Source: Euryarchaeota archaeon UBA256 (lineage in GTDB: Archaea > Thermoplasmatota > Poseidoniia > Poseidoniales > Poseidoniaceae). Taken from it: a stretch of 64,000 nucleotides of DNA. The notes under the pieces are model-generated. The model worked only from the letters and a program-made list of their open reading frames with translations, was not told the origin of the DNA and did not search any database. The translations under genes were made by a program, and so were the position numbers. The stretch spans positions 143,024 to 207,023 of the forward strand of contig DACE01000033.1 of NCBI GenBank assembly GCA_002494645.1, written 5' to 3'. Shown here piece by piece: positions 28,108 through 60,024 of the stretch (position 1 is the first letter of the stretch; each line of letters opens with the position of its first letter).

Positions 28108-29241
28108 TCATTCATCCTCTGAAAACAACATGGTTTGACGTGATGGTGGCGCTTCGAGTTGTCCTAATCTGAAACCAATTAATCGAATCGTTCCCTCGGA
28201 ATCTACACTGTTTGCAAAAAGTGAACTCGCCAATCGCATGAAGACATCAGTTTCATCCATGGCTACAGGGATACTGCGCCCCGTCGTATGGGTTTCAAAC
28301 CCCGTGTAGCGTATTTTCACTTCACCCATTCGGCCTGATACACCCAGTTCCACAGCACGTTTCATCACCGCCTGGACCAATTGTTTGAGGTATTCAAGGA
28401 CTTTTTCATGGTCGTTTTGGTCAGATTCAAACGTGTGTTCCTTACCGATGGACTTGCGACTTCGCAAAGGGCTCACGGTGCTGCTACTTTCTCCCTCAAT
28501 CAAGGCCATGAACCAGTTTGCAAAGCGTTCCCCTGCCAGTCGGGACAAGGTGAGTTCCCCTAATTCATGCACTTCATCGGCAGTAGAATATCCCCACTCG
28601 ACCAATTGGGTTGCACGTTTAGGTCCAATACCTGGAATTTCACGCAGATTACGACCGGTAAAAAAATCCTGAACTTCATCTGGCATGACCCGATAAATAC
28701 CGTGCGGTTTTCTAATCTCGCTGCTCATCTTGGCTAAAATTCGAGTTGGGCCAATCCCGAAAGAGGCAGAGAGATTCAATCGTTCCATGATGCTGATTTG
28801 CAGTTCTCGAGCCAATGCGAGTGCAGCATCCCAATCGCCATCAACGCGTTCGGTTACATCGAGGTATGCTTCATCGATGCTTGCCTGTTCAAAGACATCA
28901 GCCTCCTCACGCAAGATGTCCATCACTTTACGGCTCGCCCTACTGTAGAGTCCACGCGTGCCGCGAATGTACAGGGCTGGTCCAAATGGAGCAGCCGGGC
29001 ACCGACGCCATGCTTCGGAAATAGGCATAGCAGAACGAATCCCATAAACTCGTGCAGCGTAATTACAAGTTGACACTATGCCTCGTCCCCTTCCTTGCTT
29101 TGGGTCTGAACCAATGACCAAGGGTACTTCATCGTCCAATCCGTGATGGAGTGTTTCAACGGCTGCAAAAAATGCATCAAGGTCACAATGCAAAATGATT
29201 CGTTCAATAGAATCATGACCTGTACCACTCAACGTGTTCAC
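28108..29241 (-). CDS. dinB: Y-family DNA polymerase IV (DinB/Dbh/Dpo4 type), catalytic residues intact
   Basis: ILHCDLDAFFAAVE, steric-gate region VSTCNYAAR, SIDEAYLDVT and a HhH segment IPGIGPKRA. Confidence 0.9.
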   Translation of the reverse strand: MNTLSGTGHDSIERIILHCDLDAFFAAVETLHHGLDDEVPLVIGSDPKQGRGRGIVSTCNYAARVYGIRSAMPISEAWRRCPAAPFGPALYIRGTRGLYSRASRKVMDILREEADVFEQASIDEAYLDVTERVDGDWDAALALARELQISIMERLNLSASFGIGPTRILAKMSSEIRKPHGIYRVMPDEVQDFFTGRNLREIPGIGPKRATQLVEWGYSTADEVHELGELTLSRLAGERFANWFMALIEGESSSTVSPLRSRKSIGKEHTFESDQNDHEKVLEYLKQLVQAVMKRAVELGVSGRMGEVKIRYTGFETHTTGRSIPVAMDETDVFMRLASSLFANSVDSEGTIRLIGFRLGQLEAPPSRQTMLFSEDE

Positions 29242-29266
29242 GGCCTTAGAATATAGCCACAGGTGT

Positions 29267-29293
29267 TTGAACTTGATGTAAGGTTCAGTTCAA
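29267..29293. promoter_or_regulatory. Inverted repeat TTGAACT-N13-AGTTCAA (with nested TGAAC-N10-GTTCA GTTCA) in the dinB / radB-like divergent spacer; candidate operator
   Basis: Read directly from the sequence. It is the only extended dyad in the 101-nt divergent spacer. No known binding protein is assigned. Confidence 0.25.
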
Positions 29294-29342
29294 GCAAGGG
29301 GTGTTAGAAAGATACGATGACTTCCGATGAAGTCTTCTGTTG

Positions 29343-30140
29343 ATGGAGATGTTAGATGATAGAGGACAAACGTTGCTTGCTGCACAGCGAGCCTTCTCCA
29401 TTGTGGAGCACACTGCGAGCATCAATCTCGCAGATATTCAGCCACAGGCTGGACAAATTTACCATGTCACAGGACCCGGCTTTGCGGGAGATCGTATGCG
29501 CCCCATCGTCGAACAATGGGTTATTCAAGCCATTGAACACGAACAAACTGTGCACTGGATCGATGGTGCTTGCAGAATTAATCCTGCCCGATTCATTCCC
29601 CTTCTTGAACAACATAAACTCCCAATCAACGAGTCCCTCAGCCGAATCTTTCTCAGCAGAGGTTTCACCCTTCACCAATTGGACAGTCAACTCGCCCGCT
29701 TGCCTTCCGAATTAGCGATTACCAAGTCACCTATCGTAGTAGTTGATGGATTGCTCACGATGCACGAAGACGATGCCATTGGAACATTGGAATCCCGAAT
29801 TTTGTTGAGACGGCACATTCATGTCCTCGAACAAATCGCCAAGCAGCGGCAAGTCGCCGTGATTCTCATCACTGGAACTTCATCAGCAAAACGTCACGGG
29901 CGTCGCCTGGATTACATACGCAGGCACGCACAAAATCATCTTGATGGACGAATCGTTCAAAGAAACAGAACTTCGGTTCTTCGCCTCCATCACCCGCGAA
30001 GTGGCCAGTTTGGAATACTCGCAATATCAGCAGAGAATGGACAAACTCGTTTTCGAATGCGTCCATCGGTACGCACCAGTGAAATGGACATCACTTCACC
30101 GCATCTTGGAATTCCGACTGACCAAATTCAAGGAGACTGA
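29343..30140 (+). CDS. RadB/RecA-superfamily paralog with degenerate Walker A (predicted ATPase-inactive)
   Basis: Block-by-block parallel to archaeal RadB. GQIYHVTGPGFAGDR matches the P-loop, but GK[ST] is replaced by GDR. TVHWIDGACRINPARF matches YVDTEGGFSPERL. SPIVVVDGL matches Walker B. LEQIAKQRQVAVILITG matches ARRKNVAVIVVNQ. First ATG at 29343. Confidence 0.6.
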   Translation: MEMLDDRGQTLLAAQRAFSIVEHTASINLADIQPQAGQIYHVTGPGFAGDRMRPIVEQWVIQAIEHEQTVHWIDGACRINPARFIPLLEQHKLPINESLSRIFLSRGFTLHQLDSQLARLPSELAITKSPIVVVDGLLTMHEDDAIGTLESRILLRRHIHVLEQIAKQRQVAVILITGTSSAKRHGRRLDYIRRHAQNHLDGRIVQRNRTSVLRLHHPRSGQFGILAISAENGQTRFRMRPSVRTSEMDITSPHLGIPTDQIQGD

Positions 30141-32547
30141 CCTGCTGACCGGATTGCCGAATCATGGAGGAGGTCCATCCAAAAGGTGCTAGAATGGCCC
30201 AAATAGCTCGCTCCGCTATTGAACTGTAGTGATTCGGGCAAAGTTGGCATGAAGGATGGAGATGGTCGATTTCATCTGCGAGTCGCACTCGCTCCTGAAG
30301 AGGTTCTGCATTATGGCTCACCACGATATACCGAATGGTTGACCCAGGAGGAATTGTAGTTCCTTGTTCTTGTGCCCGAAGAAGAGCCGCATAGGTGAGG
30401 TTTTTGACACGATAACCGTCAAGATCTTTGCTCACACGTCGCGCGATGAGCCCCTGAATTGGTGGAATGTTTCGCTCATAAAGTTGAGATAAGTCACGAC
30501 GGTAGAGGCGAAGGACATCGTGTTGGGCTGAAGGGCCTGGACGTCCATTGATGCGTGTTCCTGCCGAGAGCAAATCCAATGACCGCTGTTGGAGTGAACG
30601 AATCCACGAAGGGGTTGAATGCTGACGCAGTTCAATCCCTCTCACTTTGTACTCTGTTCCGTCAAAAGCCCAATATTTCGTCAACGAACCAGCACCGTGC
30701 ATTCTACTCGGAAGAAAGGCAATGAATTCGTAAAATTGCTCATACTCGAGAGGTATTCCGATTTGGTCCGTGACACGTTGAGCAAACTCCTGTGCTGCCT
30801 TGATTTGAACATCTTTTGGGCGGTTCTTGGAATCGCTTAACCACACACAGTCAACGATTGCATGAAGAACTTCCCAACCTTCCTCTTGAGCCATTTCAAT
30901 CGTTTCCAAAAGAATGTCACGTGACCAAGCACAAATGGCTTCATGTGCCTCAATCCTTCCGAAACGAGCATTACGATATCCAGTATATCCAAAGCATGTG
31001 ACAAGAAGCCATTTCAATGCATTTTGTCGCAAATCAAAGGCGTCACCTTTCGTGATACGTTGGAGTTTTAATTGACGTCGTCGTTCAATGATCGGCGCTA
31101 CGACACGTCCAAGAAAGCCTTGATGACGTCCACAAGTGTGACTGTTAAGGCCGGGTACACCCAATGATTTTTCGTTGGGAAGCGGGAACATTCCATGACC
31201 GAATTCAGTCCGTAGTCGTCGATGGAGGAATTCAGTATGAGCCTTACTTGGCTCAAGTGGGACAAATGCTGCAGCATTCAGAGTTTCAGCAGGTTGACAG
31301 CACGTGCAATTGAGCGTCTCAGGAGAAATGTTTCTGGTTGCGATGATGCTTGGGAAGAGACTTGCAAAATCGAGTTCAATGACGGCAGAATGTACGCCTG
31401 CTTGACTGTCAAGGTAGAGTCCACCCCGGTCCGCATGCAACAACTCAAGTGCTGTTTTTGTATCCTCTGGACGGTTCTTTTTCCAAGGAACCAATACTCC
31501 ATCGTCCATTGCAACACGCATTTGTATGGCACTGATAACCGAACCCGGAGAGAGTCTCGAGATGATTTGAGCAGATTGCCTTGAATGTTGAGCGAGTTCA
31601 AACAAACCAGCAAGACCACCTTCACGAACAATGAAACTGTTAGCGAAATCCAAATGAAGTCGTCCCTTTGCAAAATAAGACCCGTATTTGTGCATTGTTT
31701 GGCCGTAAGAATGAACGGTTCGTTCCTTGGTTGTACGAGAAAGCCTCTCATCGGTTCGACCCAAACGTAAGTGAACAGCATGCAAGGAAGCATGGTGTTC
31801 AAGCGAGGGAAAAAGACGCTGGTCGCCTCCTCGCGTCACAATAATGTCTGGGTCGAAAATGTCAATCTGCTCTTGAATTGCCTCAAGAAATTCTGCCGTT
31901 GATGGAAACGATGAGCGTTGAAGTTGAACCGTATTCAGTACGTTGATCGGGGGCGCCATACCCTGTTCTTGCAACGGTTTTATTGACAGACTGCGGATGG
32001 GATTGAATTCAGATGCAGGTCCATCACCTGATTCAAATTCAAGATTCAATTGAACCACCAAAAAAGGAGGGAAATCTCCGGTATGTTCCGTTGAATCCCT
32101 TACAGGTTGCAGGTGCCCATCCTCAAAGGTCACAGCGTGAAAGGGCACACATCTGTACTCATTGAGAAAACGCTGAGCATGGTGTGCGTCGACAGAGTAA
32201 AGCGAATACATGTGAAACGAACCGCGCGTTTCAATGTGCTCAGCGAGGCCACGTAGAAGACGAGAGCATAATACTTCAACTTCAAGGACATCGCATAAGT
32301 CACTGGTTCCAAGGGTGAGTTGAGCTCGGCGCCATATGCGTTGACCTATGTTGAAACGTTGCATGATTTCTGGTTGTTCCAGCCAATGTTCAAGGCGTTC
32401 AAGCGATGAAGGTGTGCCGTGAACGTGAAGCGTTGGCGCCCAATCAATGTGGCATGAATGGGCGTTTCCATCACGGTCTACCACCCATGCAACCATGCCG
32501 GTTGCTGCATCATTCTCATGCACATCAAGAAGCCAACCTTCAATCAT
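30091..32547 (-). CDS. polB: Divergent family-B DNA polymerase, 3'-5' exonuclease motifs inactivated
   Basis: Collinear with archaeal PolB: MIEGWLLDV start, DPDIIVTRGGDQRLFPSL, GRLHLDF, motif A LDFASLFPSII, motif B KWLLVTCFGY, motif C LHAIVDCV and a C-terminal QVSLLEFG PIP-like box. The first ATG is at 32547; the ORF track's 32574 start is a TTG. Confidence 0.85.
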   Translation of the reverse strand: MIEGWLLDVHENDAATGMVAWVVDRDGNAHSCHIDWAPTLHVHGTPSSLERLEHWLEQPEIMQRFNIGQRIWRRAQLTLGTSDLCDVLEVEVLCSRLLRGLAEHIETRGSFHMYSLYSVDAHHAQRFLNEYRCVPFHAVTFEDGHLQPVRDSTEHTGDFPPFLVVQLNLEFESGDGPASEFNPIRSLSIKPLQEQGMAPPINVLNTVQLQRSSFPSTAEFLEAIQEQIDIFDPDIIVTRGGDQRLFPSLEHHASLHAVHLRLGRTDERLSRTTKERTVHSYGQTMHKYGSYFAKGRLHLDFANSFIVREGGLAGLFELAQHSRQSAQIISRLSPGSVISAIQMRVAMDDGVLVPWKKNRPEDTKTALELLHADRGGLYLDSQAGVHSAVIELDFASLFPSIIATRNISPETLNCTCCQPAETLNAAAFVPLEPSKAHTEFLHRRLRTEFGHGMFPLPNEKSLGVPGLNSHTCGRHQGFLGRVVAPIIERRRQLKLQRITKGDAFDLRQNALKWLLVTCFGYTGYRNARFGRIEAHEAICAWSRDILLETIEMAQEEGWEVLHAIVDCVWLSDSKNRPKDVQIKAAQEFAQRVTDQIGIPLEYEQFYEFIAFLPSRMHGAGSLTKYWAFDGTEYKVRGIELRQHSTPSWIRSLQQRSLDLLSAGTRINGRPGPSAQHDVLRLYRRDLSQLYERNIPPIQGLIARRVSKDLDGYRVKNLTYAALLRAQEQGTTIPPGSTIRYIVVSHNAEPLQERVRLADEIDHLHPSCQLCPNHYSSIAERAIWAILAPFGWTSSMIRQSGQQVSLLEFGQSEFQDAVK

Positions 32548-32824
32548 CGTTCGCCATCTCTTCCAGTGCAGCAACGCGGTTGGATAGGTCGTCGAGACGT
32601 TTCATCAGCCCGATGAGCATGCTGAGAACGACCGGTTGCCATGTATTGTGTGCAGGCAGCATTCCTCCCGCAGACCTCCGCTGACGCACGTCATTGAACA
32701 ACTGATCCAAAAGAACTCGCTCATTGGGTGAAAGAGCCCGATGAAAGGGCATCAAGGCATTCAATTCAGCATCTGCTCTCGTTCGCCATGGTGGCACACT
32801 TCGACCCATACGCCCGTTGTTCAA
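32540..32824 (-). CDS. Small hypothetical protein (94 aa) overlapping the polB start
   Basis: The ATG ORF's stop codon (32540-32542) lies 8 nt inside polB. It has a basic N-terminal half and an amphipathic, acidic C-terminal helix (RLDDLSNRVAALEEMANDD). No recognisable family. Confidence 0.4.
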   Translation of the reverse strand: MNNGRMGRSVPPWRTRADAELNALMPFHRALSPNERVLLDQLFNDVRQRRSAGGMLPAHNTWQPVVLSMLIGLMKRLDDLSNRVAALEEMANDD

Positions 32825-32873
32825 CGGGAGGAAGAGATGCTTTCTCTTGACCCGTTTTGTGAAACTGAAAGTG

Positions 32874-35112: not shown

Positions 35113-35829
35113 TTAATCGAGCCAGGGAATAACATCCGGGATTTCAGCAAAAATATTGGCTGGGACGGCTATTTTAATCTTTGAAACTCCCCCGAGTTTT
35201 TCCGCACTGGCACGCTGCCATGCATCGAATTCATCAAAGGATTGCATCGAGAGGACCGGATTGTTTTTCTTATTCCATTCCAAACTTTTCATTTCAGTCC
35301 CTGGAGGGTCGTGGCCCGAACAGACGATGGTTGAACCCTGAAACCGCTCAAGGACCGTTAGAGCGTCCCAATGAACGTGAGTTCGTCCGCTTGGTAGGTC
35401 ATCCCGTCCGACACCACCCTCTCCGTTGAAGAGGAAATCACCGGTCATCATGTAGCCAGGCACATGAACGATCATGGAATCGTTGGTATGTCCTGGTGAA
35501 AAGTGAAATTGAATTGGTACTGAACCGAGCATGATTTTCTCTTCATCGTCCACATATTGAGTTACGCCAAGACTGGCTGTTTGGTTTGACATAACATATT
35601 CACAAGACAATTGCTCTTGAAGTGAGAAACATGCCGTAATGTGGTCTGCATGCGTGTGCGTGGCAATGGCATAGCGGAGGGTCAAACCTTGTGATTTAAG
35701 GAGCGAAGTATACCGTTCGAGATAGTCGTAAACAGGGTCTACGAGTGCAGCTTCATTGGTTGCTTCGTCAACGATCAAGTAGGTCATTGCCCAGACTCCT
35801 TCATTCAGTTGTTCAAATCGCATGAACAT
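35113..35829 (-). CDS. Metallo-beta-lactamase-fold hydrolase (glyoxalase II / ETHE1-like)
   Basis: The THTHADH motif, downstream SPGHTNDS and GD/H ligands. The start is trimmed to MFMRFEQL to remove a non-conserved-looking extension that overlaps the rmuC upstream region. Confidence 0.75.
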   Translation of the reverse strand: MFMRFEQLNEGVWAMTYLIVDEATNEAALVDPVYDYLERYTSLLKSQGLTLRYAIATHTHADHITACFSLQEQLSCEYVMSNQTASLGVTQYVDDEEKIMLGSVPIQFHFSPGHTNDSMIVHVPGYMMTGDFLFNGEGGVGRDDLPSGRTHVHWDALTVLERFQGSTIVCSGHDPPGTEMKSLEWNKKNNPVLSMQSFDEFDAWQRASAEKLGGVSKIKIAVPANIFAEIPDVIPWLD

Positions 35830-35902
35830 GGCGACACAAAGGTACGACTTGAACTTTGACACCTTCGTATTCATCAAATACTGTTGCCGCCGTCTTGATG
35901 GC

Positions 35903-37138
35903 ATGGCGGGTGTAATCGAATACGGATTTTTACTGGTTGGTTGCCTTCTGGGCATGGCTCTCGGATGGTTACTAGCAAAGAACCGATTAGGTATGGACAT
36001 GGCGAGAGCTGAAGCGGATGCAACGGCGCGAGATCAGGTTTTTGATGAAAAATCAAAGCTCTTAGAGGCTCAAATGGAGAACGTCGCGAACCGCATTTCT
36101 CAACAAAACTCCGAAGCCTTCCTTCAACTCGCTGAAGAACGGTTAGGTCGTGTGACGACATCAGCTGAAAAAGACCATGAAGCGAGGAAAAAAGAAATGG
36201 AAGAATTGATGAAACCGATGACGGAATCGCTCTCAAACCTCGACCAAATGTCTCGTGATTTGGAAAAAGAACGATTGAATGCCTATCAGGGAATGAAACG
36301 CCACATGGAATTATTGGAACAAAATACCCATCGCTTAGGCAAAGAAGCCAATGCTCTGTCCACTGCACTTCGTAAGAGTTCCAGCGTCCGTGGTGACTGG
36401 GGAGAAGTCGCTCTGAAGAATCTTCTTGAAATGGCCGGCATGACAAAAAATACGGATTTCTTTGAACAGCAAGGTGATGAACGAGGTAATCGGCCTGATT
36501 TCGTCGTTAACCTTCCGGGAAACGGTGCCATACCAATCGATGCAAAAACAACTGCAAAACACTATCTGGAATCCCTCGACCAAGAAGACCCCGACCAGAG
36601 GGCCGCAAAACTGGCATTGCATGCAAAATCAATGCGTGGGCGAGTAACTGAATTGGCCCGTAAGGACTACCTTTCTGGTGTAAGTGGTCGTGCCGAATTT
36701 GTAGTGATGTTCGTCCCTTCGGAGGCATTGATTTCCTCTGCATTTGAGATTGACCCCACATTGCATTCCGATGCTATGGACCGAGGTGTCATCATTTCTG
36801 GGCCTGCATCGATGATAGCCTTGCTCAAAACCGCTGCTCTGTATTGGCAGCAAGTGCGCTTTGCTGAAGAGGCCGCACAAGTCGTCGGTGTTTCACAGGA
36901 ATTCTACAAACGAATGGCAACATGGAGTGGCCACTTTGCTGAGGTCGGCAAGCGACTGGATAAAGCAACTGAATATTACAATAAAGCAGTGGGATCATGG
37001 GACCGAAATGTTCTCCCCCAAGGCAAAAAATTGGAAGAACTGGGCATCCATGTGAACCAAACAAAATCGCTGGTTGAACCGCAACCAATAACGGAGAGCC
37101 CGCGACTTCCAACCAGCCTTAACCAAGAAGATGAGTAG
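35903..37138 (+). CDS. rmuC: DNA recombination protein RmuC
   Basis: N-terminal TM helix, long coiled coil, RGDWGEVALKNLLE, and a nuclease-like core (PDFVVNLPGNGAIPIDAK...FVVMFVPSE). Confidence 0.85.
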   Translation: MAGVIEYGFLLVGCLLGMALGWLLAKNRLGMDMARAEADATARDQVFDEKSKLLEAQMENVANRISQQNSEAFLQLAEERLGRVTTSAEKDHEARKKEMEELMKPMTESLSNLDQMSRDLEKERLNAYQGMKRHMELLEQNTHRLGKEANALSTALRKSSSVRGDWGEVALKNLLEMAGMTKNTDFFEQQGDERGNRPDFVVNLPGNGAIPIDAKTTAKHYLESLDQEDPDQRAAKLALHAKSMRGRVTELARKDYLSGVSGRAEFVVMFVPSEALISSAFEIDPTLHSDAMDRGVIISGPASMIALLKTAALYWQQVRFAEEAAQVVGVSQEFYKRMATWSGHFAEVGKRLDKATEYYNKAVGSWDRNVLPQGKKLEELGIHVNQTKSLVEPQPITESPRLPTSLNQEDE

Positions 37139-42797: not shown

Positions 42798-44384
42798 TCA
42801 CGATTGAATTCTGAAAATCGACCAAGTAGGCGTCGTCCATGGCTGAGTGAACGTGAGCGGAGTATCCCCGCTATGAATCAGAGTCGAATTGAGTGGGACA
42901 TAGTTTGTATCGGGTGCGACCAATACATAGGAAATATTGTTGCCCCCGTCCAAAAGCATGGTGGCATCTGATGGGTTAGACCAGATGGCTGAAATATTCT
43001 CTTCACCAGAGAGATCGATGTGCGTTTTCAAACTGTACATGAGGTGAACGGCCAATGATGGTTCTGCAACAAAGAGAAAGGTCGAATTTTCTCCGAGGTA
43101 TTCATCCAATTCCCCACCGGCCTCCTCGGTCCACAACTGCTGCCCTACAAGACTTGTAAAGAGCGTGAAGGGGAGAATGAGAAGCAAGCCTAGAAGTAAA
43201 GCACGCTTATTCACCGCTCTGTCAACATCGATGGAAGGTTCAGCTTGTTCGTGAAGTAGGTGAAGAATGAAGATGAGGGGTAGGATGAGGAGTGTGAGAT
43301 AACGGCCATTATTGCCCAGAAGGAAAGCGGTTTCGAGAACAGAGGCATTCCATAAATTCGCTTCAAACACCCACAAAGAGGCGATGTAGAACAGCAAACT
43401 TACACAAAGAACCGCCACAAAAGTCGTAACCATTGTGATGCTATGGCCCACTGCCCCACGTGCTGACTTGAGGAGCGGTGCGCAAAATGGCCACAAACAG
43501 AAACCTACGAGAATGAAGATGCCGACACCATCAATTATTGCCAAAAGGAAAGCGAAGAGAAAGGTCACTGGTTGGTCTCGAAGAACACCCAACGTCCCGT
43601 TGAATTGAGTCAAACCGAACACCACCAAACATACGAGGGTTGTCCCAGCAGCCCATGTTGCCATCAACCAAGGGCGCTGAGTTGCAGGTGTCTGGTGCTT
43701 CAAACTCAATCTCCCATCCACAAAATCCCAGAGCCATCCAGCAACAAGAACACCGCAAAAGGCAAGGAGGCTGATGTCCATTGCAAAGCCTTTCCAAGCC
43801 AAAACCAAAACAACTGAAGTGGCCATCAATGTGTAGGTGAGGCGCCTCGTAGAAGGTTTCGAAGCGTCTGCAATCATCAACGGGAAAATGCTTAATCCAA
43901 AAAAGATACACAAAAACACCTCGTCGTAACCTCGCCCAGTGGCGAAGACAAGAGGAGGACTCCATGCCACCAATGCGCCCCATCTCGGGTCGTATGATTG
44001 GCCGAGACCTTCTCGCCTCCATCGTGGAACAATACCCGCCATTGTAACCAAGACCAAAAGACCTGTCAAAGCGCCTATTTTCACGGCAAATTCGCTTACA
44101 AACCAAGGTCCAATATATCCATCATAACCCCCCGATGATGTCGTTTCATAGGTTTGTTCAGCATCATATCGCGTTGGACCCCACGGGTAGTCTTGGCCTG
44201 TTTCACTTTCATCCAATGCAACATTAAGACGAACATGCGCATCGAGGCCAAGATCGCTGGTGGCAACTGCACATACCTGTAAGAGCAGACCCATAGCGAG
44301 CAGGAGATACCACCAACGCCGATGGTTGACTTGAGGGAAGTCCACGATTTGGCCACATGCTATTTGGATAACATTCTTTCCCAC
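42798..44384 (-). CDS. Polytopic membrane protein with C-terminal extracytoplasmic domain, possibly GT-C-fold glycosyltransferase
   Basis: About 11 TM helices, an acidic first loop (LGLDAHV..ALDESE) and a ~130-aa soluble C-terminal domain. This architecture resembles ArnT/PMT-type enzymes. No WWDYG motif, so it is not AglB. Confidence 0.55.
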   Translation of the reverse strand: MGKNVIQIACGQIVDFPQVNHRRWWYLLLAMGLLLQVCAVATSDLGLDAHVRLNVALDESETGQDYPWGPTRYDAEQTYETTSSGGYDGYIGPWFVSEFAVKIGALTGLLVLVTMAGIVPRWRREGLGQSYDPRWGALVAWSPPLVFATGRGYDEVFLCIFFGLSIFPLMIADASKPSTRRLTYTLMATSVVLVLAWKGFAMDISLLAFCGVLVAGWLWDFVDGRLSLKHQTPATQRPWLMATWAAGTTLVCLVVFGLTQFNGTLGVLRDQPVTFLFAFLLAIIDGVGIFILVGFCLWPFCAPLLKSARGAVGHSITMVTTFVAVLCVSLLFYIASLWVFEANLWNASVLETAFLLGNNGRYLTLLILPLIFILHLLHEQAEPSIDVDRAVNKRALLLGLLLILPFTLFTSLVGQQLWTEEAGGELDEYLGENSTFLFVAEPSLAVHLMYSLKTHIDLSGEENISAIWSNPSDATMLLDGGNNISYVLVAPDTNYVPLNSTLIHSGDTPLTFTQPWTTPTWSIFRIQS

Positions 44385-54279: not shown

Positions 54280-57200
54280 ATGATGCCACAGCAACGCGGT
54301 TCATCTCAGCGCGCCAATGGTGCTGCGCTACTGATGGTTTGCTTGATGCTCACGCTTCCCATTACGCCGCTTTTTTCTTCCCAGCCCGAGGTACTTGCTG
54401 ATGAACCACATATCCACATGACGGGTCAAACCTACGATGCCTATGACCAACCTTGGCCGCAGTATGGACGAACGCCAACGCATAACTTTTCGATGCCGAA
54501 TCATGATCCCAACGGCGGACCGGGTGAAGGAAATGTAAGCGATGTCACTTCGCTTGCATCGCTCGTAAATCCAGTAGTCAACTGGCAGGTGTTTAATTCA
54601 GGAGATGGAAGTGATGCCTATGGTTCGGTCATCGGAGATTTCTCTCAAAGCATCAGTGCATCTCAGGCGGCAGTTGAACGATGTGGCCAGGGAACCTTGT
54701 TCCCAGTCATGATTTCGAGCACGATCACCGATGGTTCAAGAGAGAGTTTCTTGAACATCATCTCAGGGAACGATGCCAAGATAGCATGGCGTGTCAGCCT
54801 TGGAGTAACAGAAGCGATTCGCTCGACACCAATCATCCACGATATTGACGCCGATGGTTTCCAAGAAATTATCGTGGTCTACGACACCCAAGGTGCCCTT
54901 AACATTGATGTTTGGTCACCACGCCTCACCTGTACTGAGTCAAATTGGGCTACTTCTGGGCACAGCAATGAGTTGCTTTGGTCCTATACCGACGCCGAGG
55001 TACGTATCGGCTCTCCTTCACCTCATTTCGCCACCGCTAACTCGGACCACAAAGCCGTCACACAACCTCTACTTGCTGACTTGGAACTTGACGGTTCACC
55101 TGAACTTGTCCTTGCTGTTGTTGATGACCCCAGCGACAACCCCACACCAATGGTTCACGCATATGCCTTGCAGAATCTCCAACCTTCAGGCGCTGAATGG
55201 AGTGTTAACCTCGACCGTGGGACTCACCCAAGCGACCCTGTTTGGGCGCAACTGGACGGATCGACGACCAGTGTTCTGCTCACCACGATCGATGGAAATA
55301 CCGGCAACATGTGGATTTGGAAAATCGATGGTGATTCAGGTTCATTGGACTGGGAGCGAGTCGCAGTTCAAGGCACGGATTCGGATTCGGATTCTCCCCG
55401 ACTTCGCTTACCCGGACCTGTCATCACACAACTCGATGGAGATGATGCTCCTGAGATGATTCTCACCGTACCCACCGACCCCAACGGACGAACTTCAGGT
55501 AATGGTGCACGCTTTATTGGCATGGAAATCACCTCAACAACAGAAGTCTTCAATTTCCGTGCACAAAATGGATATGCTGATGCGCAGCCACTTCCTTTGG
55601 ACACTGATGATGATGGTATTTCAGACAGATTGTGTTGGGTGACATGGTATTCTGAATCAACGGTGAGTTTCAATCGCAAAGGCATGTTGGGATGCACCGA
55701 CATCAGTGATGAAAACCCAGTTACAGAATGGACCAGAGACCTCCAGCGAGGCAGCGGAAATGATAACGATGAAATCGCAGTTTCGCCACCGATTTGGATG
55801 GACATTGACGATGAAGGAACACCCGAAATCATTGTTGCTTTCGGTCGCCGTGTTTGGGCATTTGATGGTGATACAGGGGCGTCGGCTGATATCAACAATG
55901 AATGGTCCACCCCGCTCAACATGCCTCACCGAACATGGTCTGCACCAGCCCTCGCTGATGTCGATGGTGATGGAAATATTGACTTGCTCGTCGGTGACAC
56001 GCTCGTCTCAAATCGCGGACCAGACTTCGCACCATCCAGTGATAATCGAGGCCTTTCGTTCAATCCAGCTCAAGCCGACCCTGGTGCTCTTGTCACGGTC
56101 ACGGCACAGTTTTCCAACGTTGGAACAGGAGAAGCGGATGATGATCTTGATGCAGCGATCATCATGAACGGCGTGGAGTTGACGCGAGAGCGATTTACAG
56201 AGAGCGAGCCGGTTGCTCCTTCCGCCGAGGGCGGCCCTCAGACCTTTACAGCAGAATTCACAGCTGAACTTGGGCTGCATGTGTTTGAATTGGTTCTCGA
56301 CATCAACCAAAACATCACTGAACAACGAGAAGATAACAATCGGGCCGCCGCATCCTATCTTGTCGTTGAACCTCACGTCGCTGAATTAGCTGGACCAATT
56401 GAGACCACACGCATCAATCCAGGCACGACTCAGACACTGTCCGTTCAACTTACTGCCACAGGGTCTCAGATTGCTGAATGGACGCTCACCTATGATGATT
56501 CGAACCTACCAGCAGATTGGACATTCCAGCCCAGTTCCGGTACCGTGTTGAGCACCGAACTGACGCCGCAGGTCAGTCAGACCGTTGAATTTGACACCTC
56601 TGTTCCCATTGACGCTCTGGGTGATGAATCAGGTGTTGTTTCCTTCCTCTTGTCACTCAATACTGATGCTTCCATAAACACAACGCTGCAGGTACCAATC
56701 GAGGTCTTCAGAACACGAGGATTGGATATGGTAGGGGCATCCGGCCTCAATGCCTCGATGGGTCAGGGCCGGCCGGGTACTGTTGCGAAATCATGGTTTA
56801 TGGTGGAAAATCTCGGCAATGCTGTAGAAACGACAACCTCAATCACATGGACTGCTCCTACATGGGGAGGCTCGCCGTCACTTCACGATGCGAACGGAAA
56901 TGAATTATTTAGCATCAATCTTCAACCTGGTGAAGAAAAAGAACTCTTCGCATATCTCGATACTCCGGTTGGCACAACCGTTGGGACATCGACAGAAACC
57001 ACCCTCACAATGTGTATGGGAAGCGGCGAAGAAGCTCTTTGCGAATCGCTGAGCATTCACTTCATGGCTGTAGAAATTGCGGCTCATCCGAGCCACCACA
57101 GAACACTTCCAAATCATACCATAGCATGGCAACTTGATGGAGAATTACCGAACTCTGGTAAAGTGCAGTGGAATATGGCAGCGGCTGGGATGAGTCAACC

Positions 57201-60024
57201 TAACTGGGTCTGGACGGCGACGGGAGATTGGACAATCAACGGATCGTACTTGGAAAGTTCTGGTGTACCACAGAGTGCAATCGGTGGTGAACTTCGCGTT
57301 TATGTGCCGGAAAATGCGGTACCAAAGCGCCATGTATTTGTTGACAAAGACGCTTCTGAGCCCGACATGGAACTCAACATCACTGTCCAAGTGCTTCAGG
57401 TATATCGTTCCAATATATCTCTGATACAACCGGCACCTACTGCTGAAGGCAATGCCCTTTCTCTGAATGTAAGTGAACCGCATCGATTCCTGCTCTTCTT
57501 GGAAAACCCCGGCAATGGAGAGGATACCTTTGTGCTGACCGCAGAGGTCGAAAGTCCAAATCACGCATCAACCCCAGAAGTTGATTTCACCTTCTATGAC
57601 CCAGAAAAGACACTCGGAGCGCTTTCGACAGGTATTGGGTCCGTTGATGTGGAATTGTCAGAAGAAATACCTGCATTATTGCCGTTCACAATCCGTTTTA
57701 CATGGTCTTCTCAAGGTGACGAGAGTGTTTCTCAAAGTGCACTGGCGTACATCCAAGCGGCTCCAAGTCACGAGTGGGATGTTGACCTGCTCAATCAAAG
57801 CAGCGTAGAAGCAATTCCAGGTTCTGATGTTCATTTTGAATTCAATGTCACCAACCGAGGTAATGCTCCTGATAGCCTCAATCTCGTACCAGTACTCAAC
57901 ATCATAGGCCTTGGTAATGACACCATCACCTGGTCAGCGGACGAAGTGAATACATCGGTTGTGCCCATTAACGAAAGCACATCAATCCGCTTCACTCTTG
58001 AGGTCCCACTCCTAACATGGGCTGGAACCATCGGTGAAGTCACCCTTCAACATGTCGCAAGCACCTATGTCATCGGGGAAACATCGGTGAATGTCACCGT
58101 GGCAGAAATCTATGGATGGAAATTAAATCTCACGGGAACCGACTTAGAAGTTGATCCTGAAGGGCAGAATCTTACCTTAGAATTGATTCATGAAGGCAAC
58201 GGACATGAAATTCCCTACTTCGCTAAGGCAGGAGCCGGGTGGAACATCACATTACCCAACGCTGGTGATGTTGTTGAACCCTACGGCACGACCAGTTTTA
58301 CTGTCTTTGTTCAGCCCCCCGAAAATGCCATTGCTGGCGAGGTAGGCGTCATGCGGATTCGTATCACTGGTGATGACCTTAACGGGAAAATTGTCGAAGA
58401 GATTCCTCTGCGAGTAGGCGCTGCACCCCAACTCGAAATTGACCACAGGGGGGCATGGAATGTCAATACTGCCGGAGGCTACCCTACTGCGTGGATTGTC
58501 AATCAAGGAAACGATGTTGCACTCATCACACTTGATGTCAATGGATTGCCCGATGGGTGGACCACGCAACAAGGGTCACAGGTCGTCCTTGCCCCCGGTG
58601 AGGTCAAGGGGATGCCGCTATCGCTGGTCCCCGCAGTTGATTGGAATCAGCAACGTTTCCTGCTCACCATCAACGTCAATCACCCCATATTGGGAACCAT
58701 TCCTCACGATATCGAAGTCGAATATTCCGAATTATCGTTCGCCACGACGCCTGTCATTGACAGTTACATTGGTACTGAACACACATTCCTCCTCCATGAT
58801 ACTGGGAGTGAAACCCTTGCATTATCTGCGAGCTTAGACCTCCAACGAGAGAATGAGAAAGTAACCTTCATCCAGCCATCTGATTCGGGAGAAATCAAAA
58901 TCGCATATTCCGGCGCCTCAACAACTGGAAATTTGTCCCTCTACCTCGTTGCGAGGACCTACCCCGACGCCTTAGCCTCCTGTGAATTTAATGACAATGT
59001 GTTCGGGGATTTAGGCAGAATCACCCTCTCAGGGTCAATCGGTCAATGTGAACTCACCGCTTCGGAGTATGAAGATCTTCGGGCGGTCTTGACGCTGATT
59101 ACTTCAGAAGGTGAACGCATTCTGATCGATGAGGATGCTTGGACGGTTTCGGCTGGAGATAATGACACCGTCAACATCACGCTCAGCGAATGGACGCCGA
59201 ATCCAGGTGAATTCATTCTCATGGCGACCATGTACGATCAATTCGGGAGGGAACTTGCACAAACATCCCAAGCCCTTATCTCACGGGCTACTAATTGGAA
59301 CATCGGAATCAATTCATTGACAAGCGATGGGGATATCACCGTCGGTATTCAACGCACAGGGTACAACATTCTTGCTCAGGCTGTGTGCGAATTGACTGTG
59401 AGTTCAACAGGAGGATGGAGTGGAACATACTATGTTGATGTAGCCTACTCGGATTTTGCACCTGTGATTTTGATTGAGAATCCAGGTGATATTGAGAAAG
59501 ATGAAAAGATCACAGCTGTCCTCTCCTGCTCGGTTCCGTTTGATATTGATGATGACCCCGAGGACGACTCAGCCACGACGTTCTACAAACCTGAAAGTTT
59601 GCTCAGTGTGTCATCGACTGATGTTGAATGGATTATTGGCAGCGCTATCATCGTCATGGCCATCGCTTGGCTCTCAGGACTGATACGGCCTCGCCAAGAT
59701 GGTTTAACAAGGCCATCACCAAGTAAAGAGGAAGATGCCACAACGTCGAAAACGCAGGAAACCGTAGAGGAAGTTGATGATATCCAAGTTCAATCCGACC
59801 CTAACGACGAAAACGAAATCGCAGTAGAATTTAGTGAAGACCTCACCCCTATTGATGACGTAACATCAACAATTGAGGTCATTGACGCACCAGAACAACA
59901 GATCGATTCAGACCCATCTGCGAGCGGTCGATTGGCATCCATGCGGGATGAACTCGACGATCAAAGCATCGAAGAGCGTGAAGGTTCAATCGAAGACAGA
60001 ATGAACCAGTTCTTCGGGCGTTGA
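54280..60024 (+). CDS. Giant (1914 aa) surface protein: signal peptide, FG-GAP/integrin-alpha-like propeller repeats, CARDB and multiple Ig-like domains, C-terminal TM anchor and acidic cytoplasmic tail
   Basis: FG-GAP Ca-loops DIDADGFQEIIVV, DLELDGSPELVLA, QLDGDDAPEMILT, DIDDEGTPEIIVA and DVDGDGNIDLLVGD. CARDB hallmark ...VLDINQNITEQREDNN. TM helix IIGSAIIVMAIAWLSGLI near the C-terminus. Confidence 0.85.
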   Translation: MMPQQRGSSQRANGAALLMVCLMLTLPITPLFSSQPEVLADEPHIHMTGQTYDAYDQPWPQYGRTPTHNFSMPNHDPNGGPGEGNVSDVTSLASLVNPVVNWQVFNSGDGSDAYGSVIGDFSQSISASQAAVERCGQGTLFPVMISSTITDGSRESFLNIISGNDAKIAWRVSLGVTEAIRSTPIIHDIDADGFQEIIVVYDTQGALNIDVWSPRLTCTESNWATSGHSNELLWSYTDAEVRIGSPSPHFATANSDHKAVTQPLLADLELDGSPELVLAVVDDPSDNPTPMVHAYALQNLQPSGAEWSVNLDRGTHPSDPVWAQLDGSTTSVLLTTIDGNTGNMWIWKIDGDSGSLDWERVAVQGTDSDSDSPRLRLPGPVITQLDGDDAPEMILTVPTDPNGRTSGNGARFIGMEITSTTEVFNFRAQNGYADAQPLPLDTDDDGISDRLCWVTWYSESTVSFNRKGMLGCTDISDENPVTEWTRDLQRGSGNDNDEIAVSPPIWMDIDDEGTPEIIVAFGRRVWAFDGDTGASADINNEWSTPLNMPHRTWSAPALADVDGDGNIDLLVGDTLVSNRGPDFAPSSDNRGLSFNPAQADPGALVTVTAQFSNVGTGEADDDLDAAIIMNGVELTRERFTESEPVAPSAEGGPQTFTAEFTAELGLHVFELVLDINQNITEQREDNNRAAASYLVVEPHVAELAGPIETTRINPGTTQTLSVQLTATGSQIAEWTLTYDDSNLPADWTFQPSSGTVLSTELTPQVSQTVEFDTSVPIDALGDESGVVSFLLSLNTDASINTTLQVPIEVFRTRGLDMVGASGLNASMGQGRPGTVAKSWFMVENLGNAVETTTSITWTAPTWGGSPSLHDANGNELFSINLQPGEEKELFAYLDTPVGTTVGTSTETTLTMCMGSGEEALCESLSIHFMAVEIAAHPSHHRTLPNHTIAWQLDGELPNSGKVQWNMAAAGMSQPNWVWTATGDWTINGSYLESSGVPQSAIGGELRVYVPENAVPKRHVFVDKDASEPDMELNITVQVLQVYRSNISLIQPAPTAEGNALSLNVSEPHRFLLFLENPGNGEDTFVLTAEVESPNHASTPEVDFTFYDPEKTLGALSTGIGSVDVELSEEIPALLPFTIRFTWSSQGDESVSQSALAYIQAAPSHEWDVDLLNQSSVEAIPGSDVHFEFNVTNRGNAPDSLNLVPVLNIIGLGNDTITWSADEVNTSVVPINESTSIRFTLEVPLLTWAGTIGEVTLQHVASTYVIGETSVNVTVAEIYGWKLNLTGTDLEVDPEGQNLTLELIHEGNGHEIPYFAKAGAGWNITLPNAGDVVEPYGTTSFTVFVQPPENAIAGEVGVMRIRITGDDLNGKIVEEIPLRVGAAPQLEIDHRGAWNVNTAGGYPTAWIVNQGNDVALITLDVNGLPDGWTTQQGSQVVLAPGEVKGMPLSLVPAVDWNQQRFLLTINVNHPILGTIPHDIEVEYSELSFATTPVIDSYIGTEHTFLLHDTGSETLALSASLDLQRENEKVTFIQPSDSGEIKIAYSGASTTGNLSLYLVARTYPDALASCEFNDNVFGDLGRITLSGSIGQCELTASEYEDLRAVLTLITSEGERILIDEDAWTVSAGDNDTVNITLSEWTPNPGEFILMATMYDQFGRELAQTSQALISRATNWNIGINSLTSDGDITVGIQRTGYNILAQAVCELTVSSTGGWSGTYYVDVAYSDFAPVILIENPGDIEKDEKITAVLSCSVPFDIDDDPEDDSATTFYKPESLLSVSSTDVEWIIGSAIIVMAIAWLSGLIRPRQDGLTRPSPSKEEDATTSKTQETVEEVDDIQVQSDPNDENEIAVEFSEDLTPIDDVTSTIEVIDAPEQQIDSDPSASGRLASMRDELDDQSIEEREGSIEDRMNQFFGR

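Follow-up and report, generated by a model that had tools for sequence, protein, structure and literature searches.

A probable PolB2 mutasome locus of a Poseidoniales archaeon, its dinB neighbor and a conserved tandem promoter element

Introduction

A 64,000-nucleotide stretch from Euryarchaeota archaeon UBA256 (GenBank assembly GCA_002494645.1, contig DACE01000033.1, positions 143,024 to 207,023 of the forward strand), hereafter the window, contains four adjacent genes encoding a Y-family DNA polymerase (dinB, 28108-29241, minus strand), a RecA-like protein (29343-30140, plus strand), a family-B DNA polymerase (30091-32547, minus strand) and a small protein (32540-32809, minus strand). All four were confirmed as open reading frames (ORFs), and they are real genes rather than chance ORFs, since the homologs of each number in the dozens to hundreds and about 80 species-level genomes repeat the arrangement. 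An initial annotation, made from the sequence alone, had placed the four genes correctly and read them as a mutasome-like module of new composition, in which an inactive recombinase-like adaptor would pair the family-B polymerase with DinB. The reading we favor, with a probability of about 85%, is that the locus is the Poseidoniales (Marine Group II, MG-II) version of the known archaeal PolB2 mutasome, in the operon arrangement termed "3b". The mutasome-like character of the locus is retained in this reading for three of the genes, those of the polymerase (PolB2), the RecA-like protein (iRadA) and the small protein (PPB2), hereafter the triad, and not for dinB as a fourth member.

An operon of PolB2, a small protein and an inactivated RadA is reportedly the subject of an early account by Makarova and Koonin in 2013. 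A conserved archaeal operon of PolB2, a helical protein of about 90 aa (arCOG07300) and an inactivated RadA was described by Makarova et al. in 2014 (PMC4104785). In 2025, Timinskas, Timinskas and Venclovas renamed the two partners PPB2 and iRadA, likened the assembly to Pol V and called it the PolB2 mutasome (PMC11791011). Their study describes the MGRT arm of PPB2, the D(K/R) motif of PolB2, the operon groups, and clamp-binding motifs carried by PolB2 or iRadA in a fraction of members, and it models a PolB2:iRadA:PPB2(3) heteropentamer, with no DinB, in which iRadA sits on PolB2 through a RadA-oligomerization-like motif and the PPB2 arm lies in the PolB2/iRadA cleft (PMC11791011). The supplement lists Poseidoniales loci as operon group "3b (PPB2-PolB2-iRadA)", and an MG-II pentamer (EHR76801/EHR76800/3xEHR76802) reached an AF-Multimer ranking score of 0.866; the main text discusses neither DinB nor promoters (PMC11791011). 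The composition that the initial annotation had thought novel was thus already published, Poseidoniales included (PMC4104785, PMC11791011). A search for literature on Poseidoniales polymerases gave nothing useful.

Experimental knowledge of this polymerase group comes from Dpo2, the PolB2 of Sulfolobus islandicus (S. islandicus), which is reported to be the sole damage-induced polymerase of that organism, to be needed for induced mutagenesis, and to extend mismatched and lesion-bearing ends (PMC7390963, PMC8764526).

Results

The polymerase gene (30091-32547, minus strand) encodes an 818-aa PolB2 of the Dpo2 group of family-B polymerases, the predicted catalytic subunit of a translesion "extender". 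Its motif A is canonical (DFASLFPS). Motif B reads KWLLVTCFGYTGY and motif C reads HAIVDCV, in which I564-V565-D566 (30850-30858, minus strand) replace the DTD of KOD in the alignment; the initial annotation was right in calling motifs B and C non-canonical. Replacement of the first catalytic Asp of motif C (DxD) is a hallmark of PolB2 and is found in most of its members (PMC11791011). Over the palm region the protein is 30% identical to S. islandicus Dpo2 (E 1e-30); both polymerases carry KW(I/L)LV..FGY.GYRN and (I/V)(I/V)D, the latter as IID in S. islandicus, and their motifs B and C match. The score against the NCBIfam model NF004418 is 403 bits, under its cut-off.

Replacement of the first motif C Asp and of key motif B residues would also suit a catalytically dead triad with a regulatory or structural role, perhaps at stalled forks or when replication is initiated, an idea raised in 2014 and in keeping with the Orc/Cdc6 genes that neighbor the operon in many euryarchaea. 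We consider this quite unlikely, given that S. islandicus Dpo2, with the same IID-type substitution, is reported to be an active extender that damage-induced mutagenesis requires (PMC7390963, PMC8764526), and that the Asp of motif A and the one left in motif C, together with the palm around them, do not vary across 17 PolB2 orthologs.

The claim that the polymerase lacks all exonuclease motifs could be verified in part. The catalytic Asp of ExoII aligns to Leu245, in a column that varies among orthologs, and the Pfam exonuclease domain stays under threshold (19.2 vs 23 bits); for ExoI and ExoIII there was no reliable alignment.

Two further motifs bear on assembly. Residues 351-374, VLVPWKKNRPEDTKTALELLHA-DR (31426-31497, minus strand), form a stretch ending in a D(K/R) motif, in which D373-R374 is invariant and the 22 residues before it (351-372) are nearly invariant in the 17 orthologs; the window's ADRGG aligns with ...MMADKGG of S. 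islandicus (253-DK-254). In the published models the residues before D(K/R) are a RadA-oligomerization-like beta-alpha motif that binds iRadA, and the DK/DR pair touches the PPB2 arm (PMC11791011). At its C-terminus PolB2 carries QVSLLEFG (Q-x-x-L-x-x-F; 30121-30144, minus strand), a box resembling the PCNA-interacting peptide (PIP), encoded within or beside the overlap with the iRadA gene. Its L805 is invariant, F808 shows a conservation of 90% or more, and about 80 species across the order have the motif. No clear PIP box was found in the tail of the window iRadA, and in the published survey PCNA-binding motifs are commoner on iRadA than on PolB2 (PMC11791011), so that the Poseidoniales clade seems to represent a "PolB2-borne" case of the clamp motif, with putative PCNA binding. 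Beyond the PIP-like box, the protein tails of PolB2 and iRadA are both poorly conserved.

The small ORF had been called mechanically as 94 aa from a TTG codon (32540-32824). Its orthologs are 89 aa long with an invariant N-terminus, MGR[ST]VPxWRxR (M1, G2, R3, V5, P6, W8, R9 and R11), and the protein database contains an 89-aa entry that matches this product exactly, for which reasons the true start is almost certainly the ATG at 32809 and not 32824. The length given in the initial annotation thus changes, and the 8-nt overlap of its stop codon with the ATG of polB2 (ATGATTGA) stands; PPB2 would be translationally coupled to polB2 through this overlap. The resulting protein (32540-32809, minus strand; arCOG07300 / Pfam DUF8156) is helical and carries the arm MGRSVPPWR with R3 and R9. 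Every homolog is annotated PF26485/DUF8156; neither the 94-aa nor the 89-aa form matched the Pfam copy used here, which does not include this family. An hhalign comparison with S. islandicus PPB2 is collinear from residue 1 and weak (E 1.1e-4, probability 57%). In the AlphaFold2 (AF2) model, residues 1-6 form a free arm followed by helical segments at 7-18, 20-25, 28-46 and 57-88, which we read as three main helices.

The RecA-like gene (29343-30140, plus strand) encodes iRadA, a 265-aa inactivated RadA/Rad51 core without the N-terminal domain, matching Pfam Rad51 at 1e-07. A 265-aa iRadA in the protein database is 100% identical according to the search table, and its residue 6 differs from the window sequence. 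The AF2 model has a predicted local distance difference test (pLDDT) score of 81.7 and is confident over residues 30-232, with residues 1-28 and 233-265 predicted to be disordered and about 38 disordered or short residues ahead of the P-loop. Foldseek matches this model best to the ATPase cores of RAD51/RadA (E ~1e-13, TMt up to 0.71).

The Walker-A-like motif of iRadA, GPGFAGDR (residues 44-51; 29472-29495, plus strand), has Asp in place of Lys, and WIDGAC (29556-29573, plus strand) stands in place of the RadA IDTE, with loss of the catalytic Glu. Aligning the protein with 58 relatives and one published sequence gave the family motif GPG[RH][AS]G-x-[SGR]MR, where x is the Walker Lys position. 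Of 56 Poseidoniales orthologs, 33 have Lys at that position (GPGRAGKS) and 13 have Arg; the closest relatives of the window show Gly, and the window itself Asp. The RadA catalytic Glu is Ala in 58 of 59 relatives (WIDGAC) and Ser in the remaining one. Since this residue is lost in essentially all relatives, ATP hydrolysis is predicted to be dead across the family; nucleotide binding may persist in many species and be lost or dispensable in this one.

These sequences also speak to whether the genes are misread housekeeping genes, that is, a normal replicative or repair PolB beside a normal RadB. Such a reading has in its favor only the weak family-level matches (Pfam DNA_pol_B and Rad51, and the RadB model TIGR02237). 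It is hardly credible, because iRadA scores 24.6 bits against TIGR02237, with a cut-off of 172.4, and likewise falls far under the RadA equivalog cut-off; because the catalytic Glu is lost in all relatives; because PolB2-specific motifs and tight coupling to PPB2 are present; and because the clade is explicitly classified as PolB2 (PMC11791011). The TIGR02237 score and the GPGFAGDR Walker A motif rule out the RadB identity that the initial annotation had proposed for the RecA-like protein. The loss of its Walker Lys was correctly seen, and the Foldseek matches to RAD51/RadA cores point to an inactivated RadA rather than an ordinary RadB.

The assignment to the mutasome family is anchored by locus L050, which is CM001443.1 of MG-II. 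It encodes EHR76801 exactly at the matched position and is collinear with the window from the MMPL gene through the lactamase gene; EHR76801 is 51% identical to the window PolB2. Because L050 encodes EHR76801 and is syntenic, the window locus is the ortholog of a member that has already been classified and modeled. The published Table S1 gives matching surroundings for 95 group 3b loci, with IMS neighbors in 46, 2-Hacid_dh_C in 45, tRNA-synt_1 in 42 and Lactamase_B in 32 (PMC11791011).

To place the window among its relatives, 80 species-level Poseidoniales loci and contigs of selected homologs were fetched, and nine neighboring genes and the triad were located in each. The triad is always intact across about 75 Poseidoniales species, with and without dinB. 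The iRadA gene is convergent to polB2 in 83/83 loci holding both, usually with a 3' overlap of 4-188 nt, and the 50-nt convergent overlap reported for the window was confirmed. Two loci of related Poseidoniaceae, L037 (12498-14443) and L080, have two membrane-protein genes (368 aa and 262 aa) between polB2 and iRadA; the insertion breaks the overlap and leaves the rest of the block undisturbed. The 3' overlap is therefore not obligatory.

The fourth gene, dinB (28108-29241, minus strand), starts with GTG at 29241 and encodes an intact 377-aa DNA polymerase IV with Pfam IMS, IMS_C and HhH domains. As the initial annotation had held, it is an intact Y-family enzyme, which both matches the NCBIfam Pol IV equivalog NF002677 (263.8 bits; cut-off 256) and keeps the catalytic carboxylates, in the motifs CDLDAFFAAVE and SIDEAYLD (DLDAFF and SIDEAY). 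The protein scores best with bacterial-type Pol IV models, with 263.8 bits vs 168.8 for the Dpo4-type model. The DinB C-termini of the window (28108-28140) and of related loci share a conserved RQ[TA][TK]L[FL]xEEE motif (RQTxLF-type), which resembles the bacterial beta-clamp QxxLF pattern more than it does a canonical PIP box.

The sampled loci fall into two classes. In class A (56 loci, including the window, and including those just mentioned for DinB) the whole block with dinB is present. In class B (20 loci in which the flank beyond iRadA extends for 2.5 kb or more) PPB2-PolB2/iRadA lies in unrelated surroundings, with no dinB, valS or dehydrogenase gene within 10 kb. On a neighbor-joining PolB2 tree, class A forms four deep clades and class B one large and two or three small clades. 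From this distribution, the dinB-containing block is probably ancestral, and the triad, itself remaining intact, has probably separated from dinB on two or three occasions or more. Because the triad left dinB repeatedly and yet stayed whole, dinB fits a long-standing, lineage-specific syntenic neighbor, present since early in the order, and not a conserved component or subunit of the module. The neighborhood conservation that the four-gene proposal called for is found for the triad, and the dinB adjacency is limited to loci carrying the block.

Upstream of PPB2, the window has a promoter region (32837-32871, minus strand) composed of the tandem element CTTTCAGTTTCA (32860-32871), a GGGTC box (32849-32853) and a TATA-like AAAGCAT (32837-32843). 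The tandem element is conserved as CA(C)TTTCA(C/G)TTTCA at -79 to -58 (median -62) of the PPB2 ATG in 77/77 loci; it is followed by a GGGTC-like box and then, some 31 nt ahead of the ATG, by a TATA-like box, and is kept in class A and class B alike, whatever the upstream gene.

The 101-nt spacer between the divergent dinB and iRadA genes, which agrees with the initial annotation, has a comparable organization on its iRadA side. An iRadA-proximal copy of the element, GGTTCAGTTCAAGC (29282-29295, plus strand), is the degenerate TTCAGTTCAA variant of the clade and occupies the same position as the canonical TTTCACTTTCA of other loci. It is followed by a GGGGTG box (29298-29303, plus strand) and an AAAGATA TATA-like box (29308-29314, plus strand), about 32 nt before the iRadA ATG. 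The order and spacing of these boxes match those of the PPB2 promoter (GGGTC ... AAAGCAT), from which we infer that GGGGTG and AAAGATA (29298-29314) are the iRadA promoter. On the dinB side, essentially every class A dinB/iRadA spacer preserves a 17-nt sequence, GGTGTTTGAACTTGATG (29262-29278 in the window), located 21-37 nt ahead of the dinB start codon. It carries a TTCAAA box on the dinB strand and is probably the dinB core promoter. Coding of a longer DinB N-terminus (IKFKH...) by this sequence was considered and excluded: in many loci it is interrupted by in-frame stops or falls out of frame, and it is therefore non-coding. In the clade of the window, GGTGTTTGAACTTGATG and the iRadA-proximal variant form an imperfect inverted repeat (TTGAACT ... 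AGTTCAA).

A position weight matrix (PWM) was built from the PPB2-upstream sites and used to scan 1.53 Mb of loci on both strands. At a threshold of at least 12 bits, which applies to all counts in this paragraph unless stated otherwise, it gave 315 matches; 108 of these precede PPB2, and 60 precede iRadA and share its orientation. Within 160 nt upstream of PPB2, 72/80 loci have a match (80/80 at 10 bits), a result that is circular because the PWM was trained there. The independent test is iRadA, where 42/80 loci have a match in the same orientation within 160 nt. The corresponding region of dinB has none in its own orientation (0/57) and, owing to the copy in the shared spacer, 20/57 in the opposite one; the same 160 nt upstream of seven control genes (MMPL, valS, polB2, dehydrogenase, membrane protein, lactamase and rmuC) have none. 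Extending the region to 300 nt upstream of iRadA yields 24/25 class B and 20/56 class A loci, compared with 1.7% of random 300-nt windows. The remaining class A loci, including the window, have the conserved, shortened TTCAGTTCAA variant at the same place. Positional and contextual conservation of this kind suggests that the tandem element is very probably a functional operator shared by, and co-regulating, the two transcription units of the triad.

In Sulfolobales, ANTTTC is the DNA-damage response element (DDRE) that is bound by Orc1-2 and required for induction; in damage-induced genes it precedes the ATG by 23-55 nt, and dpo2 induction depends on Orc1-2 (PMC6061795). The window element holds two such hexamers in tandem, ACTTTC and AGTTTC, at -62 to -51 of PPB2, slightly beyond the published range. 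Feng 2020 is without promoter information, and the dpo2 promoter was recovered from metagenome contigs with four Sulfolobales PPB2-polB2 loci (L093-L096). Their PPB2 promoters have ACACTTTCGGTGTTCTCTC, with ACTTTC, at -52, and a species of about 80% identity has ATTTTCACTTTCGTTTTTCTCTC. Among 11 plasmid-borne haloarchaeal PolB2 operons, with the order iRadA-PPB2-PolB2, 3/11 loci (L098, L103 and L108) have TTCACTTTCACTTCCAC or TCACTTCCACTTTCAC at -63 to -69, scoring 16.8-18.4 bits; only 5/187,724 positions of the haloarchaeal loci reach 16 bits. Another seven (L099-L102, L104, L105 and L107) have tandem CGGAA(A/G) instead of TTTCA, at about -45 to -60 relative to the first gene of the operon, for example CCGGAAACCCGGAAACCCGGAAGCC; most haloarchaeal loci with these repeats have a Cdc6/Cdc18 gene directly upstream or nearby. 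The CGGAA(A/G) repeats may be a different operator or the TTTCA operator inverted. In the Sulfolobales loci and in L098, L103 and L108, sequences of the form CACTTTC(R) or tandem CACTT(T/C)CACTT(T/C)CAC precede the first PolB2 operon gene by 52-69 nt and agree with the Orc1-2-bound ANTTTC. A full-text literature search for the motif in the context of archaeal DNA damage returned nothing relevant.

With these data the place of dinB can be weighed. A new type of archaeal mutasome with four parts, with DinB and the proofreading-less PolB physically joined by the inactive recombinase-like protein as the initial annotation had supposed, could draw on the divergent dinB/iRadA arrangement, found over a short spacer in 56/56 class A loci with both genes and in four deep clades, on the canonical tandem element inside the spacer in 20/57 loci, and on the binding of RecA by bacterial UmuC and other Y-family polymerases (PMC11791011). 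It is nevertheless very unlikely. DinB never adjoins the triad without the whole valS, MMPL and dehydrogenase set, which marks a housekeeping syntenic block; about 20 species with sufficient flank have an intact triad and no dinB nearby; the element is oriented towards dinB in 0/57 loci; the published pentamer models need no DinB to be complete and confident; and outside group 3b, IMS-domain neighbors occur at 10/1728 loci in Table S1 (PMC11791011).

DinB may instead be coupled to the triad functionally and not physically, inserting at the lesion ahead of extension by PolB2, with class A co-regulation from the spacer. This is compatible with the PolB2 mutasome assignment, and we regard it as possible while leaning against it. 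At abasic sites in S. islandicus, Dpo4 inserts and Dpo2 then extends (PMC8721586); the adjacency is ancient and widely retained, the tandem element is placed between both core promoters of the spacer, and both polymerases have conserved C-terminal QxxL-type motifs. On the other hand, S. islandicus dpo4 is not damage-induced, unlike dpo2 (PMC6061795), two or three losses of the adjacency, if not more, left the triad in place, the element faces iRadA only, and passive synteny can explain the retention.

The gene order around the locus is MMPL, valS, dinB, iRadA, PolB2, PPB2, 2-hydroxyacid dehydrogenase, membrane protein and metallo-beta-lactamase; RmuC, NUDIX and EVE-domain genes are members of the same conserved block. 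The window as a whole is ordinary chromosome of a Poseidonia-like archaeon, with genes for topoisomerase, serine hydroxymethyltransferase, valS, alaS, RtcB, eIF6 and the like, and a flat base composition. A survey of its genes found no Orc1/Cdc6 gene, no LexA and no further polymerase, including a second PolB, within the 64 kb. The metallo-beta-lactamase-fold ORF (35113-36000, minus strand) and the rmuC ORF (35822-37138, plus strand) overlap head to head by 179 nt; as orthologs of the former are called at 236-250 aa and the listed window product has 295 aa, its listed start is probably too far upstream. A 1914-aa ORF lies at 54280-60024 (plus strand).

Discussion

In the PolB2 mutasome reading of the locus, PPB2 and PolB2 would be co-transcribed and translationally coupled on the minus strand, and iRadA would be transcribed convergently from a promoter of its own. 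PolB2 is a family-B polymerase whose active site is non-canonical (IVD) and which is predicted to lack proofreading. It would form a complex with a single iRadA and a trimer of PPB2, iRadA being held through the RadA-oligomerization-like motif ahead of D373-R374 and one N-terminal MGRS arm of PPB2 being inserted near the active site. The complex would act as a damage-tolerance "extender" of mismatched or lesion-containing primer ends, and in the Poseidoniales lineage the C-terminal QVSLLEFG box of PolB2 would probably reach PCNA. As dpo2 of Sulfolobus is controlled by the Orc1-2-bound ANTTTC, expression of the complex may, by analogy, be damage-inducible via the tandem element. DinB may act ahead of PolB2, as inserter before extender, and the divergent spacer may be a route to shared regulation.

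Compared with group 3b of the PolB2 mutasome, nothing essential differs. The window proteins have the IVD motif C, the D(K/R) motif and an MGR[ST] arm with R3 and R9, the window iRadA is a RadA core without N-terminal domain or catalytic Glu, and the order is PPB2-PolB2 with iRadA immediately downstream, in synteny with the modeled CM001443. The details particular to this locus or its clade are that iRadA is on the opposite strand, with a 50-nt overlap with the polB2 3' end; that the clamp-binding-like box is on PolB2 and not iRadA; that the Walker position is Asp and in most sister species Lys; and that the neighbors are dinB, valS and 2-hydroxyacid dehydrogenase rather than the orc1/cdc6, SRAP or DUF72 genes found elsewhere. 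The S. islandicus Dpo2 system (SiRe_0614-0616), which is damage-induced via Orc1-2, shares a homologous PolB2 (30% identity over the palm) with the same active-site substitutions, a homologous PPB2 (with an MGRT arm) and an element of the CACTTTC(R) type that precedes PPB2 by 52-62 nt. It differs in its three co-oriented genes (group 3a), a much shorter polymerase with a more decayed exonuclease domain, an iRadA too diverged for BLASTP and a promoter element that is single or differently extended (ACACTTTCGGTGTTCTCTC). It alone has experimental evidence.

In its logic the triad appears analogous to Pol V and to ImuABC. ImuA-ImuB-DnaE2 (ImuC) likewise combines a degenerate RecA-like protein with an error-prone, proofreading-less polymerase under damage control, both the lack of proofreading and the damage control being putative for the window. 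Its polymerase, however, is the C-family DnaE2 and not a B-family enzyme, its ImuB is an inactive Y-family fold whereas the window DinB is intact, its regulation is by LexA, it has no PPB2 equivalent, and homology ends at the RecA superfamily. As predicted for the triad, Escherichia coli Pol V (UmuD'2C-RecA-ATP) binds a RecA/Rad51-family protein via a filament-oligomerization-like motif, has the N-terminal arm of a small subunit near the active site and uses the sliding clamp (PMC11791011), but its catalytic subunit is Y-family, its RecA is an active recombinase taken from the filament, and its UmuD' is a dimer unrelated to PPB2. Pol zeta (Rev3-Rev7x2-Pol31-Pol32) is, as the triad may be, a B-family, exonuclease-dead, multisubunit, damage-linked extender following a Y-family inserter; its accessory subunits are unrelated and include no RecA-like subunit.

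Several points weigh against the PolB2 mutasome assignment and the regulation proposed with it. BLASTP found no similarity between the window iRadA and that of S. islandicus, so that the two are linked by published classification and gene context. Most Poseidoniales iRadA proteins keep GxxxxGK[ST], and "inactive" may here mean a protein that binds ATP without hydrolyzing it. For PPB2, the hhalign probability with the S. islandicus protein is just 57%, the monomer model is moderate (pLDDT 72), and a Foldseek search of it against the PDB gave nothing significant; the published likeness to a sigma-factor domain was not reproduced. Complex formation, polymerase activity and induction in Poseidoniales are extrapolated from work on Sulfolobus and from published AlphaFold models. 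As to the promoter element, the iRadA-proximal copy in the window is degenerate (3.3 bits), and within the window alone the element is not above chance, with 2 matches vs 1.2 expected, the second of them, at 44200, inside a coding region. As there is no enrichment within the window, the evidence for the element consists in its positional conservation across species and contexts. The Poseidoniales PWM gives the Sulfolobales sites only 2.5-12.2 bits, which limits the part that the two groups appear to have in common to a CACTTTC(R) core of about 7-8 nt.

With these points in mind, the standing of the element as an Orc1-2-type damage-response element, which is argued by analogy, comes somewhat short of even odds. 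Slightly more doubtful still is the broader proposal that TTTCAnTTTCA is a functional damage-response operator that has traveled between archaeal phyla together with the PolB2 operon, standing about 60 nt ahead of both PPB2-polB2 and iRadA throughout Poseidoniales, with related elements at -52 to -69 of the operon in Sulfolobales and in some haloarchaea.

Conclusions

The presence of the triad in Marine Group II archaea is already documented, and its identification here as written adds nothing new; the conserved promoter element seems to be the only potentially new item beside a module that is itself known. That module is "textbook-in-waiting", as the first multisubunit prokaryotic B-family translesion polymerase. 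The variable Walker Lys of iRadA, set against its invariant loss of Glu, bears on whether the mutasome needs nucleotide binding, and the Poseidoniales clades with and without an adjoining dinB constitute a natural "experiment" on the co-regulation of a Y-family inserter and a PolB2 extender. The element resembles the only characterized archaeal damage-response operator, is testable, and could define the ultraviolet (UV)/DNA-damage regulon of uncultured surface-ocean archaea from genomes and metatranscriptomes. If the proposal of a traveling operator is true, the most abundant planktonic archaea of the sunlit ocean would have an Orc1-2-type damage regulon, into which dinB would have been drawn via the dinB/iRadA spacer in most Poseidoniales lineages, yielding a co-regulated inserter-plus-extender locus.

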